64,000 nt of DNA from Escherichia phage JS10, in the sequence record EU863409; one strand, given 5' to 3'. Both the position numbers and the translations under genes were made by a program. This document shows, piece by piece, positions 56,572 to 59,969 of the stretch (positions are counted from its first letter, which is position 1; each line of letters starts with the position of its first letter). Under the pieces are notes generated by a model. That model saw only the letters and a program-made list of their open reading frames with translations, had not been told where the DNA came from and made no database searches.

Positions 56572-56860
56572 ATTTTTTCCAGTCAGAAATCATATGAATC
56601 TCTTGGTCATACGTCAAGAGACTACGAGTTATAATACCCTTACAAGGCCCTGAGATGAACTCGAGGGTGAAGTAAGGAACCTGTTTCATTAATCGGATAC
56701 TAGGAGCGTGGCATCTAAAACGAGAGCCCTTAAAGGGCCCTGACATGAATACATATTCTAATGGATAGAAATAAGCATGCTCAAAGTTTGTAGTAAGGTC
56801 CTCTCTTCGAACCTTACGTGAGAAATAACAGAACTCAAAAAGTTCTTCATCGGTCATCAT
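56564..56860 (-). CDS. hypothetical protein
   Basis: 98-aa ORF. Confidence 0.45.
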   Translation of the reverse strand: MMTDEELFEFCYFSRKVRREDLTTNFEHAYFYPLEYVFMSGPFKGSRFRCHAPSIRLMKQVPYFTLEFISGPCKGIITRSLLTYDQEIHMISDWKKYV

Positions 56861-57384
56861 TGCATTCCTATCACAAAGAACAGTGGCAGAGGTTTAGAAC
56901 CCTGGCACATAAATTTGTTAATCATTACCTGGTAAGCTTCATAGAACTTATCCATCGATGGAAGGCGCATTGGCTCTTCGATAATAATCAATAATCGAGT
57001 AACTGATAGACCACGATACTTATGGAAGTTATCTTCGTCTAAAAATGAACGCACGGTATCATATACAACAAATCCAGGACCTTCTACTTGAAGGTGTGGT
57101 TGGGCCTTAGAAACCCTTTTTATTATATTACAGATTTCTCGTGAGCGATGCGAAGAACTTGACATAACAATCACATCATTACCCTTGGAAACCCAATCAG
57201 CTGCGAACTGAGCAAGGGCACTTGTTTTACCTGTTTGACGCCCGCCGTCAAGTCGAAGAGTACCAAATTCTTGCATTCTTGAAGTGGGTTCGTACCAGGT
57301 ATATTGGTCTGAGTCTAAACGTTCAATGGCGCGTTCAGCGAAGGCGTGCATTAAGGTTAGATAAATGGGAGTTAAAAATTTCAT
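56857..57384 (-). CDS. P-loop NTPase
   Basis: 175 aa; Walker A GGRQTGKTS. Confidence 0.5.
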   Translation of the reverse strand: MKFLTPIYLTLMHAFAERAIERLDSDQYTWYEPTSRMQEFGTLRLDGGRQTGKTSALAQFAADWVSKGNDVIVMSSSSHRSREICNIIKRVSKAQPHLQVEGPGFVVYDTVRSFLDEDNFHKYRGLSVTRLLIIIEEPMRLPSMDKFYEAYQVMINKFMCQGSKPLPLFFVIGMQ

Positions 57385-57544
57385 AATGGTCTCTTAGTTG
57401 TGGGGCCGTTCCTTGGCACATAATTCATCCATGTATCCGTATGTAAACCCTTTACCGCACTTGGGCTCGACCTTATTACAGGTAGGGAAAGGTCCATCAC
57501 TCAGAGGACGCGACGTTCATGAGGAGAGGGCCGGCTTGCCTTTA

Positions 57545-57844
57545 TTAGAAAGAACCAGAACCTTTAATTGTATTCTGGCGACCTTTATTTTCTAATTCAG
57601 AGTGGTCGATTTCGTATGCTTGGGCTACACCAAAGGCCTTTTTAACTTTAGCTAAAGAGCCTTTAGATGTAACAATATTAAAAGTATTACCTTTAGTAAA
57701 ATCAACCAAATCCACTTGTACGCCCTGTTTACCGAGGCTTGCTACAATAGCATCAACATATTCTTGGTCTAAGGTGCCTTGGACACCTATTTGGAATGCT
57801 TTAGGAGCTTTGGCTTCTGTAATAAATTCTTGATAGGTTTTCAT
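57545..57844 (-). CDS. internal protein (capsid-targeted), IP family
   Basis: 99 aa; N-terminal capsid-targeting sequence MKTYQEFITEA as in T4 IPs. Confidence 0.65.
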   Translation of the reverse strand: MKTYQEFITEAKAPKAFQIGVQGTLDQEYVDAIVASLGKQGVQVDLVDFTKGNTFNIVTSKGSLAKVKKAFGVAQAYEIDHSELENKGRQNTIKGSGSF

Positions 57845-57856
57845 ATTATTCCTTAA

Positions 57857-57898
57857 GTTGATAGAAGTATTCTATCACGGATTTAATTAAGCGTAAAT
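57857..57898 (-). promoter_or_regulatory. early-promoter cassette (variant -35)
   Basis: gttgatagaagtattcta...gtaaat. Confidence 0.45.
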
Positions 57899-58303
57899 AG
57901 CCTTGCCATAGTGTTTGTACCAGGTAGGGCGTTGTGCAATTTTTTCGTCCAAACGGGCTTGTGAAATAGCGATAGAAGCTTCGTGAGGAACATAATCACC
58001 ACGGAATTCCTGAGGAATATCACTAATGTCCTGGACTGTAGTATCCTTGATATTAAAGCCACGTTTTAAACATTCGGCTATAAGCTCGATTTGACGCTTA
58101 CGTAAAAATTCAAGCTTATCATAAAAGAATGTAACGTGGCCTGTACCAAGGATAAAAGTAGGGCTGATTTTAAAATCACGAACACGTTTACCGTTAGCAA
58201 CATGCTTACGAACTGCACCGAAAACACGTGGTAATTCACGATATTCAGCCATTAAGTGTTGGTCAGCCAATTCAGATACTAAGGTAAGGTTGATACGAGT
58301 CAT
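57887..58303 (-). CDS. denV: endonuclease V (pyrimidine-dimer DNA glycosylase)
   Basis: 138 aa; essentially identical to T4 DenV ([34 protein letters not shown]...). Confidence 0.95.
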
Positions 58304-58359: not shown

Positions 58360-58758
58360 TTATTTGTAAGTTTTCATCCAATTCTTGAACAGAGCTGCAA
58401 CGTCTTTCTCTTTAACGTTCAATTTAACGTCCAGCATTTTGCCACCAGCGGCACGTGTCTGACGAATCTTAGCCGTACCGGTTTCGCCATTCCACTCAAC
58501 ATAATACTGCCCGGTGTTCATAGCGATACCATCGCCATAGTCTTCGTTCTTAGAAGTAGTGAATGCCAACTTCATGGTCTTAGAGACACGGGCCTGCATG
58601 CCTGTCTGCAGAGCGTTACGAACGCGAATAACCTGAGGAGTGGCCTGGGTCAGGTTCTCGTTCAGTTCTTCGGTGAACTCTTCTGATTCAAACATTGCCA
58701 AAAGTTCAGCGGGCGCCGGGATTACAGCTTCGGCGATAAATTCATTGTAAGTTTTCAT
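58360..58758 (-). CDS. internal protein (capsid-targeted), IP family
   Basis: 132 aa; N-terminus MKTYNEFIAEA. Confidence 0.6.
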   Translation of the reverse strand: MKTYNEFIAEAVIPAPAELLAMFESEEFTEELNENLTQATPQVIRVRNALQTGMQARVSKTMKLAFTTSKNEDYGDGIAMNTGQYYVEWNGETGTAKIRQTRAAGGKMLDVKLNVKEKDVAALFKNWMKTYK

Positions 58759-58799: not shown

Positions 58800-59396
58800 T
58801 TAATTACCACGGGCTGCATTAGCAACGGCGTAAGCGTACTGAATATTAGCGTCTTTAAACGTACCTTTAGAGGTATCTAGCTCTGCCTTAAAGCCGGCTT
58901 TAGTCATAACATCGGCAAATTCTTTACGGAAAGCCATTGTATCAAGACCTTTCCATGCTGATTTATGCTTGGCAAATTCAAGACCAGCGAAGTTGACTGC
59001 TTTAGCCAATTTATTATCAATAGTCCATTTACCTGCTTTAGGCACAAATATCGGACCTTTCTGTTTAGAGAATAGTTTTAAATTCCAGCGACGAAGGTCG
59101 CCGTCGGCTTTAACAAAAGCTGCGTCCAAGTTACTAGCAACAACATCTTGAATATGGCCAAATTTAAGCCCATCAGCTTCAATATTTAGGTCGTTACGCC
59201 AGCGAAGTCCTTCCCAGGCGAAAGCTTTAAAGTCGGAAGCTTTTGTAGCTAAATACCGTTCAATAGGAGCTGTTTTAGCGTCAAAGCCGTTTCCTGGGTT
59301 GTCAACGCCGTTTCCTCGGTAGGTCCACTCATCTTTATTAATGCCTTTGACCTTTCCTGCAGTAGCTTCGGTGATAAATTCTTTATACGTTTTCAT
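58800..59396 (-). CDS. internal protein (capsid-targeted), IPIII-like
   Basis: 198 aa; N-terminus MKTYKEFITEA; basic. Confidence 0.6.
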   Translation of the reverse strand: MKTYKEFITEATAGKVKGINKDEWTYRGNGVDNPGNGFDAKTAPIERYLATKASDFKAFAWEGLRWRNDLNIEADGLKFGHIQDVVASNLDAAFVKADGDLRRWNLKLFSKQKGPIFVPKAGKWTIDNKLAKAVNFAGLEFAKHKSAWKGLDTMAFRKEFADVMTKAGFKAELDTSKGTFKDANIQYAYAVANAARGN

Positions 59397-59480: not shown

Positions 59481-59969
59481 TTATCTATAAGCAGCCCAAG
59501 TACCTGTTTTAAAGGTGGCGATAACACGCTTGGCACGATTCGGGGTTTGCTTGTACCAACGAGACTGCGCCAGGTTAACTGCCGCATCGTCCCAACGTTT
59601 CTGTTGGAGCATACGTAAAGAGTTAGTGAACCCTGCCACACCTGCTTCACCCATTTGGAAGACCATATTAATCAATGCGCAACGACGAACTTCGTCCAAC
59701 ACATCATAAACCGGTTTCAATTTAGGATTGCGCATTATAGCTCTACGAGCATTTTCCACTGAACGATTAAAGAGTTGTTCAGCTTCAGCCATAGTAATAC
59801 GACCATTACAAACTCGACCCATAAGCTTATCAAGTTCAGCGCGAGCAACATCTTTAGATGGGTTCTTGGTAACTAACTGGCCAATACCAATAGTCCAATA
59901 ACCTTCGGTGTCTTTATAAAGGTTTAAATCAAGACCTTCGTCTTGACGTAACATATCAAAAATATCCAT
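59481..59969 (-). CDS. e: endolysin (T4 lysozyme)
   Basis: 162 aa; long identical blocks with T4 lysozyme ([62 protein letters not shown]). Confidence 0.95.

Follow-up and report, generated by a model that had tools for sequence, protein, structure and literature searches.

The gap of 160 nucleotides (nt) at positions 57385-57544 of Escherichia phage JS10 (record EU863409; the window is the whole 64-kb stretch that was analysed) very probably carries one intact copy of a genuine conserved structured RNA. The element lies on the minus strand, bounded upstream by the stop codon with which an internal-protein gene ends and downstream by the start codon (ATG, 57384) of a P-loop gene homologous to vs.8. 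Members of its family fold into a hairpin of five base pairs, P1, followed directly by a three-way junction of helices P2, P3 and P4 with about 25 near-invariant bases, and an H-type pseudoknot joins the 5' part of the P1 loop to the tail 3' of P2. All the helices covary across many phage lineages and an independent covariance model picks out the segment on the minus strand, in strong support of an earlier note, made from the letters alone, that had offered a small structured RNA as one of two readings of the gap. The motif is under strong purifying selection, occurs only in phage records and contigs and is usually co-located with transfer RNA (tRNA) genes.

Conservation, fold and covariation of the element

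The earlier note had described the gap as G+C-rich and non-coding, with short GC palindromes, a position between the two genes named above and no convincing minus-strand open reading frame (ORF), and in all of this it proved accurate. The G+C content of 57385-57544 is 50.6% against a mean of 39.1% (standard deviation 4.0 over 160-nt windows), which is 11 points higher and a value reached by only 0.31% of 160-nt windows; GGCCGG lies at 57529 and GGGGCCG at 57402; and a 39-amino-acid (aa) minus-strand ORF is mechanical and without conservation, as a mechanical 65-aa plus-strand ORF is also not conserved as an ORF. Alignment with relatives, which the note had named as a check, finds the segment conserved, with a blastn match in 1020 phage records, and the gap is therefore more than a chance blip of composition. 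The window belongs to a Dhakavirus T-even genome whose best matches, IME281, UP19 and SP18, show 97-99% identity, and distant T-even genera (Tequatrovirus including T4 and T2, Mosigvirus, and the Klebsiella and Enterobacter T4-likes) keep 80-140 nt of the gap. Outside the T-even phages, about 40 nt of core persist at 92-95% identity in the rV5-like Vequintavirinae, the N4-like Klebsiella phage Pylas and the 44-kb siphophage EcoPhCCP1. Between this phage and T4 the core is identical at 38 of 40 positions, the two Vs.8 proteins at only 40%.

We derived the fold by comparison by eye and then by anchored ungapped alignments (Table 1). Across 68 distinct cores, 96.3% of cells were paired, against at most 43.6% when the 3' partners were slid by one to three columns, and the covariation score was reached by none of 500 shuffles; an earlier set of 41 cores gave the same picture. 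P2 pairs 57487-57484 with 57451 and 57449-57447 around a bulged G that is G in more than 90% of the cores. All four P2 pairs vary on both sides, the innermost being AU in 37 cores, UA in 12, CG in 9, UG in 8 and GC in 2, and the next CG in 47, GC in 9, UA in 7, AU in 4 and GU in 1. P3 opens with a pair that reads A-U in 65 cores and G-C in 3, and the P4 pair C57465-G57458 is CG in 59, UA in 7 and GC in 2; in no core is a pair counted here left unpaired. A first P4 pairing, CGAGC/GUGCG, was replaced after divergent members showed C18-G25 covariation. Frequent G-U pairs, such as those in 16 of 68 cores at the outer P2 pair, would be A-C mismatches on the other strand, so the fold belongs to the minus strand and is transcribed with the genes around the gap, all of which lie on that strand.

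P1 occurs in 16 different complementary versions across lineages: for the 5-mer at a fixed site 5' of P2, an upstream complement was present in 12 of the 16 distinct cases, against 8% of shuffled 5-mers, and the other four are 4-base-pair (bp) versions shifted by one base. Within the T-even phages the compensatory variants include AAAGC/GCUUU, AAAGA/UCUUU, GGGAA/UUCCC and GGGAG/CUCCC. The P1 loop carries a clade-specific insertion, P1a, that is missing from the short forms (Pylas-like and EcoPhCCP1-like); its counterpart is CCUCAU/AUGAGG in T4 and CCUUAU/AUAAGG in L061, and L015 has one base fewer on each strand. The mean duplex energy of the pseudoknot is -6.6 kcal/mol with its own partner versus -4.7 kcal/mol with the partner of another sequence, and none of 2000 permutations was as good. 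Partners that change together comprise CGCCGA/UCGGUG, CUCCGG/CCGGAG, GUGAGGG/CCCUUAC, GCCAGC/GCUGGU, CACAC/GUGUG, GGGAG/CUCCC, GGGUA/UACCC and GCCUA/UAGGU, and divergent members, too, keep the pseudoknot while differing in its sequence. P1 and P3 also emerge independently from RNAalifold; an alternative pairing that the program proposes, GCC/GGU, involves invariant bases only.

Covariance model R1 was built from nine sequences with no T-even phage among them (Pylas-like loci, L072 and L074). On the 64-kb window it returned one match only, at 57546-57439 on the minus strand, with 48.1 bits and an expectation value (E) of 1.5e-8 over the full model (1-80), the 40-nt T-even insertion being treated as a loop insertion. 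Over the scanned loci R1 gave one match each, together with a weak extra copy in L040, and no match in three chance loci. Among loci retrieved via the Vs.8 protein, all six that were scanned carry the element upstream of vs.8, including four that earlier DNA-pattern scans had missed. The window copy fits the family model in P1, in P2 with its bulged G, in P3 (ACCU-GURNNA-AGGU), in P4 (C..GC/GC..G) and in the GUAA junction strand. The sequence GGTAA is invariant in alignment A7, where the retrieval patterns fixed GGTAA; L087, one of the loci retrieved via the Vs.8 protein, has GAUAA.

Two further parts of the element deserve description. In the P3 loop (57474-57479), positions 2-4 read UAA, UAG or UGA in every copy but one, which has CAA, and never UGG; this likeness to stop codons is not significant, since only single transitions from UAA are seen. 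Downstream of the pseudoknot lies a 3' extension that is seen in T-even phages and has a partial counterpart in rV5-like phages. All T-even versions conserve it at the RNA level and keep no single reading frame. It holds two GGA motifs about 21 nt apart that are invariant in T-even phages (57405-57430 in the window), AUACAUGGAUGA and an AAGGAAC within the loop of a GCC/GGC hairpin, and we take these paired motifs to resemble CsrA-type sites. AUGGAC recurs in a hairpin loop after the pseudoknot of the unrelated contig L134. In L015 and L026 (Citrobacter phage CF1 and a related T4-like phage), a 34-nt insertion, AAGGCAAGGAGCCCAAUUCGAUUCUAGGAAGGAA, separates the pseudoknot 3' strand from AUGGAC with both conserved blocks retained, which indicates that the extension tolerates insertions.

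Occurrence and genomic surroundings

The motif is present in about 1000 T-even genomes, in rV5-like phages, in the N4-like Pylas, in siphophages and in many uncultivated phage contigs, where pattern scans and the model added divergent copies. T4 has its copy at 64848-64941, minus strand. Pairs of tandem copies, in which a canonical motif accompanies a divergent one, were found in some T4-like phages and one 44.6-kb contig (L040 5085-5261, L084 1267-1444 and L129 797-970), and it was the divergent copies that gave the P3 and P4 covariation. A scan of 185,579 genomes of bacteria and archaea gave 0 matches to the exact degenerate pattern and 5 to a relaxed one, versus about 9 estimated by chance, with no full model match; 5,426 E. 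coli genomes searched by blastn likewise yielded none.

Among the T-even phages, the element starts at the stop codon of a varying upstream gene (UAAUAAAGG...), either an internal-protein gene or denV; vs.8 comes next, or in KPV15 a further internal-protein gene. In the window, the gene for the 99-aa internal head protein and the two internal-protein-like genes of Table 1 are paralogues that start MKTY(Q/N/K)EFI(T/A)EA, the internal-protein leader. Internal-protein genes differ in number and kind among relatives, which marks this as a cassette-shuffling region with the RNA motif as its downstream boundary. The T4 tRNA cluster lies about 6 kb from the equivalent position, while ARAGORN reports no tRNA in the 64-kb window.

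In most non-T-even lineages the element sits inside or beside tRNA arrays. The spacing from the preceding tRNA is 3 nt in L145 (tRNA-Ser), 15 nt in L074 and 20 nt in L105 (tRNA-Glu); the element stands between tRNAs in L056, L137, L114, L128, L130 and L140; and it lies within 100-500 nt of tRNAs in L119, L120, L126, L127 and the Pylas-like and rV5-like loci. The nearest tRNAs are co-stranded with the element in 23 of the 23 tRNA-bearing loci. In rV5 the element has ORF75 on one side and the annotated promoter P74 on the other, with the tRNA cluster a few hundred bases downstream, and in EcoPhCCP1, L065 and L072 it directly follows the endolysin gene.

Several of these loci contain further structure next to the motif. 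Pylas (L032) has about 1 kb of unannotated sequence downstream of its tRNA cluster, at ~1335-2290, and L036, L038, L041, L043, L051 and L071 are similar. There the motif is flanked by repeated cassettes with long closing stems (CACAACACACAACAGGUAAGAGCAUUG ... CAGUGCUCUUUCCGUUGUGG) and variable inserts, one of which holds a T-arm-like GCGGUUCGAUUCCGC, and the interval 1917-2052 gives weak matches to transfer-messenger RNA (tmRNA)-like Rfam models at 33.7 and 20.8 bits, below threshold; the region may be an array of further RNAs. The rV5-like loci L004 and L075 have a repeat, CCC(C)nUAGAGGGCUUGAUAGUGCAC, upstream of the motif and a similar CCCAUAGAGGGACUUGAAAGUGCUGG downstream, and L039, L053 and L059 have it on both sides. 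Each repeat is a small hairpin followed by CUUGAnAGUGC and may be a phage-specific regulatory or processing signal. In EcoPhCCP1 (L033, 1553-1660), a strong sigma-70-like promoter, TTGACA-17 nt-GATACT, comes right after the motif, with an intrinsic terminator, CCCGGCCCUGACCCAGCCGGG plus a run of nine T, about 50 nt past it; this unit looks like a separate small RNA gene.

Table 1. Coordinates of the RNA element, of nearby sequence features and of neighbouring genes (window positions unless a locus is named)
Feature	Position	Strand	Remarks
Motif core: P1-P4 and both pseudoknot strands	57439..57546	-	covariance model R1
P1 5' strand AAAGG	57539..57543	-	pairs with CCUUU; follows tandem stops UAAUAA of upstream gene; conserved CA next
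P1 3' strand CCUUU	57488..57492	-	complementary variants across lineages
P1a, clade-specific P1-loop insertion	57493..57530	-	CUCA/UGAG closes small hairpin; pyrimidine-rich CCCUCUCCUC
Pseudoknot 5' strand CCG	57532..57534	-	within CAAGCCGG; predicted to pair with CGG 57437-57439
Pseudoknot 3' strand CGG	57437..57439	-	after linker UUACAUA (57440-57446)
P2 5' strand CCCU	57484..57487	-	closes three-way junction; covariation
P2 3' strand A[G]GGU	57447..57451	-	near-invariant bulged G at 57450, alignment column 43
P3 hairpin ACCU-GUAAUA-AGGU	57470..57483	-	near-invariant
P4 hairpin	57456..57469	-	C57469-G57456, bulge G57468 A57467, G57466-C57457, C57465-G57458, loop 57459-57464
Junction strand GUAA, P4 to P2	57452..57455	-	
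3' extension	57397..57436	-	AUGGAU (GGA 57428-57430); hairpin GCC(57415-57417)-AAGGAAC-GGC(57405-57407), second GGA in loop
Shine-Dalgarno-like AAGAGA and vs.8 homologue ATG	57382..57395	-	AAGAGA 57390-57395; ATG 57382-57384
Sigma-70/T4-early-like hexamers TTTACA-16 nt-AATTAT	57420..57447	-	in linker and 3' extension; 9 of 12 consensus matches
Mechanical 39-aa ORF	57381..57500	-	GTG start; stop overlaps vs.8 ATG; T4 frame; not a gene
175-aa P-loop protein, Vs.8 homologue	56857-57384	-	PHROG 1488; directly downstream of gap
99-aa internal head protein	57545-57844	-	PHROG 2667; directly upstream of gap
denV	57887-58303	-	neighbour gene
Internal-protein-like gene	58360-58758	-	neighbour gene
Internal-protein-like gene	58800-59396	-	neighbour gene
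Lysozyme e	59481-59969	-	neighbour gene
Long vs.8 annotation, T4	L006 3754-4413		NC_000866 64253-64912
Long vs.8 annotation, RB33	L005 943-1530		
Long vs.8 annotation, IME281	L001 1558-2121		

Proposed function and rival explanations

Taken as a whole, the evidence is probably best explained by a structured RNA family that acts as an autonomous module. In the mechanism that we propose, the motif would act as RNA, as an autonomous, compact and probably stable module that is carried on, or processed out of, the polycistronic transcript running from the internal-protein gene into vs.8 and, elsewhere, polycistronic transcripts shared with tRNAs. A conserved partner would recognise the invariant junction; the most plausible candidates are factors, of the host or the phage, that belong to tRNA or translation biology, and defences directed against it. 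In the T-even phages the module would have been placed right after the upstream stop codon, and the two-GGA 3' extension that precedes the ribosome-binding site of vs.8 would have been gained there. Diverse virulent phages share this pseudoknotted fold, which measures about 80 nt and has a near-invariant junction, and it is embedded in tRNA arrays and absent from 185,579 bacterial and archaeal genomes; together these features would mark an RNA with a specific and important partner. A narrower claim, that the module is an autonomous, stable RNA that binds a factor, and not a ribozyme or a cis-regulator, is one that we hold with slightly less than even confidence. It is possible, if doubtful, that the motif defines a new functional RNA class, either a self-cleaving or processing ribozyme that matures tRNA-array and early transcripts, or a decoy or adaptor for a host tRNA or translation component or for a tRNA-targeting defence. 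In that case T4 would have been carrying it unseen beneath a mis-annotated ORF.

Several observations weigh against this account, some of them bearing on the fold and others on its autonomy. The pseudoknot of the window, CCG/CGG, has only 3 bp (-4.5 kcal/mol) versus 5-7 bp at the same positions in relatives, and folded on its own the sequence shows no thermodynamic signal (z = -0.3 for the minus and -0.1 for the plus strand). The invariance of the core is overstated, because the DNA patterns used to retrieve most sequences prescribe many of its positions; the relatedness of the sequences inflates shuffle-based statistics; and in the model-fitted alignment A5, P1 is mis-aligned in about nine T-even rows, which slightly inflates the pairing counts. 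In T-even phages, and hence in the window, where ARAGORN finds no tRNA gene, the element lies outside tRNA arrays, and neither a promoter nor a terminator of its own is evident for the element, with no terminator-like site in the gap. The T-even position of the element, nearly always immediately before vs.8, would also fit a cis-acting leader, and the attributes 'stable' and 'factor-binding' are drawn from context.

The most substantial rival, which we nonetheless consider rather unlikely, is a new small ribozyme or a dedicated ribonuclease (RNase) target at which polycistronic transcripts are cut, thereby freeing tRNA 3' trailers in the arrays and splitting the internal-protein or denV message from that of vs.8 in T-even phages. 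Small ribozymes typically share what is seen here: a length of about 80 nt, a compact pseudoknotted fold and a junction with about 25 near-invariant bases. The position of the element is intergenic and strand-specific next to no constant protein gene, tandem copies exist, and the order of strands (P1 5', pseudoknot 5', an optional hairpin, P1 3', the domain and pseudoknot 3') mirrors that of ribozymes resembling the one of hepatitis delta virus (HDV). Its place directly downstream of tRNAs in L145, L074 and L105 is also like that of theta ribozymes, which PMC10879173 describes as adjacent to viral tRNAs. However, at E as high as 5 or 10 no variant is matched by an Rfam ribozyme family, P3/L3, which HDV ribozymes require, is absent from the short forms, the conserved bases fall in a domain that those ribozymes can dispense with, and the distance to the upstream tRNA ranges from 3 to more than 400 nt.

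Control of the translation of vs.8 and downstream genes by a cis-regulatory leader, whether riboswitch-like or protein-binding, is improbable, although it would fit the arrangement in T-even phages, where vs.8 nearly always follows (6 of 6 scanned vs.8 loci; 1020 records match) and the conserved 3' extension stops 10-25 nt short of the ribosome-binding site. An invariant junction with a pseudoknot is also aptamer-like, P1-P4 and the pseudoknot covary, and the likeness of the two GGA motifs to CsrA-type sites would suit a leader too. What lies downstream nevertheless varies, from a sigma-70 promoter (rV5 and EcoPhCCP1) to tRNA genes, the structured modules of Pylas and, in KPV15, an internal-protein gene; neither a terminator nor an alternative pairing that involves the ribosome-binding site was found; and tandem copies and embedding in tRNA arrays do not suit the leader of a single gene.

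We regard as quite improbable a cassette acting at the DNA level, whether an early promoter with a stem-loop, like the promoter-early stem-loop (PeSL) cassettes discussed below, or a recombination hotspot that shuffles internal-protein genes. It would explain why the element stands at a boundary with a variable upstream gene (internal-protein genes or denV) whose stop codon is embedded in the 5' edge of the element (UAAUAAAGG), and why the tail holds TTTACA-16 nt-AATTAT. These hexamers, however, are not conserved in T4 (GGGTAAATACAG...) and are thus at most a clade-specific extra; the many G-U pairs and the strand-specific pseudoknot argue for RNA rather than duplex or cruciform DNA; and the same module occurs inside tRNA arrays of unrelated phages.

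Protein coding, as an N-terminal extension of Vs.8 or as a 39-aa gene coupled to vs.8 through an ATGA overlap, is very improbable. The T4 annotation does read MRDSRQPVIRSSPSAV... through the core as the predicted Vs.8 N-terminus, and the 39-aa ORF of the window shares PVIRSSPSAV with it and terminates in ATGA. The frames nevertheless differ, with T4 fusing this frame to vs.8 and RB33 and IME281 annotating others; the core of Pylas is immediately preceded by a stop codon, in-frame stops occur in L018 and L046, and one nucleotide is deleted within the L088 core; and the variable core positions are first and second codon positions of the T4 frame, not third. In the 3' extension, a small 'MD...' ORF shifts frame or stops after two codons in other phages, and the presence of the same core in tRNA arrays also counts against coding. 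The PHROG 1488 profile for Vs.8, of 177 positions, matches residues 1-175 of the short protein end to end, so the ATG at 57384 is the usual start of the family. In T4, then, the element is mis-annotated as the N-terminus of Vs.8, making up its first ~40 codons. Annotated lengths of vs.8 are inconsistent (219 aa in T4, 195 in RB33, 187 in IME281, and 175 in MX01 and UP19); between them the long versions use three frames to read the RNA motif, and PHROG 1488 fits the short start.

Least probable of all is the other reading in the earlier note, a functionless remnant of horizontally acquired G+C-rich DNA, which would suit a G+C content 11 points over the genome mean and a ~40-nt core common to unrelated phage families but is unsupported, since the element is intact in about 1000 genomes and far better conserved than neighbouring proteins, and its flanks differ by compensatory changes, which indicates selection rather than decay.

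Significance and comparison with known RNAs

An autonomous RNA module of this kind would matter on several counts. T4 is the best-studied virulent phage, and in T4 the element has been annotated as protein or left as an unremarked gap. Phage tRNA arrays are being re-read as modules of counter-defence and host takeover, and an RNA that travels with such arrays gives experiments a direct way into that question. In hundreds of deposited genomes the element also corrects the vs.8 start in the gene models, and it would make a new Rfam family, a candidate family that is present in T4 itself.

The family appears to be new, being listed in neither Rfam 15 nor any paper that we found. The Rfam search that the earlier note had put forward was run, and among the 4227 families of Rfam 15, which include hammerhead, twister, pistol, hatchet and HDV-like ribozymes, riboswitches and small RNAs, none overlaps the element in the window at E up to 10. 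Nine related loci were scanned too: nothing falls on the element in the rV5-like, RB33, Pylas, EcoPhCCP1 and phiC120 loci, and divergent members have no match at E up to 5. This null reflects a family not listed in Rfam, not a lack of structure. A literature search found no description of the motif. PMC10690425 catalogues 10,006 phage and virus RNA candidates; its main text does not mention the motif, its tables not having been searched, and the catalogue may contain the motif unnamed.

Some identities were tried and rejected. A tRNA or tmRNA is not indicated, as ARAGORN reports none in the window or on the Pylas element and Rfam tRNA matches in related loci never overlap the element. Mimicry of ribosomal RNA was considered on account of GUAACAAGGU (16S 1497-1506) and GCGGUAAU (530 loop) in some variants, which are not above shuffled controls; R1 scored at best 5.7 bits on the E. 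coli rrnH operon, and in local alignments to 16S and 23S, 16-98% of shuffles score as high. Kinship with T4 rnaC and rnaD (the stable species 1 and 2 RNAs of the T4 tRNA cluster) was rejected as well, R1 with filters off giving a best score of 10.4 bits, on the opposite strand, over T4 69500-74000. These two are nevertheless phage small RNAs co-oriented with and beside tRNA genes, as the motif is in its commonest context outside the T-even phages, and they differ from it in that the T4 tRNA region has no R1 similarity and the T4 motif lies about 6 kb away.

PeSL cassettes belong to the hyperplastic regions of T4-type genomes. The motif resembles them in lying at the borders of shuffled small genes in a variable T-even region and in the promoter-like tail of the window copy. 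It differs in being a multi-helix pseudoknotted fold with an invariant core that is common to non-T4 phages, with hexamers that are not conserved and no T-run terminator. Riboswitch aptamers that combine a three-way junction with a pseudoknot share its size, invariant junction, pseudoknot and, in T-even phages, 5' position; unlike them, the motif has no Rfam match, no constant downstream gene and no recognisable expression platform, and many of its copies lie between tRNA genes.

HDV-like ribozymes form a nested double pseudoknot with a P3/L3 hairpin, P1.1 and a catalytic C in J4/2, cleave themselves at the 5' end of P1, and run in the order hairpin strand, pseudoknot strand, hairpin strand, domain, pseudoknot strand. 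An HDV-like fold was rejected for the motif on the short forms (Pylas, EcoPhCCP1 and L074), which have neither a hairpin between the pseudoknot and P1 3' strands nor a linker before the pseudoknot 3' strand. The conservation of the motif also centres on the three-way junction, the equivalent of the dispensable P4 of HDV ribozymes. Theta ribozymes, which are HDV-like and adjoin viral tRNAs according to PMC10879173, resemble the motif as small pseudoknotted RNAs beside viral tRNAs with the same strand order; they differ in that the motif has no Rfam HDV match, its short forms have no P3/L3 and its catalysis is only hypothetical.

Pseudoknotted tRNA-like structures offer a last comparison, for example the tRNA-like structure (TLS) of turnip yellow mosaic virus (TYMV). 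Unlike a TYMV-type TLS, the motif has no CCA end, T-loop or D-loop and is missed by ARAGORN and by the Rfam tRNA and tmRNA models; the likeness is that a hairpin with an H-type pseudoknot stacked on it could pass for an acceptor/T-arm helix, in a motif that is itself tied to tRNA biology.

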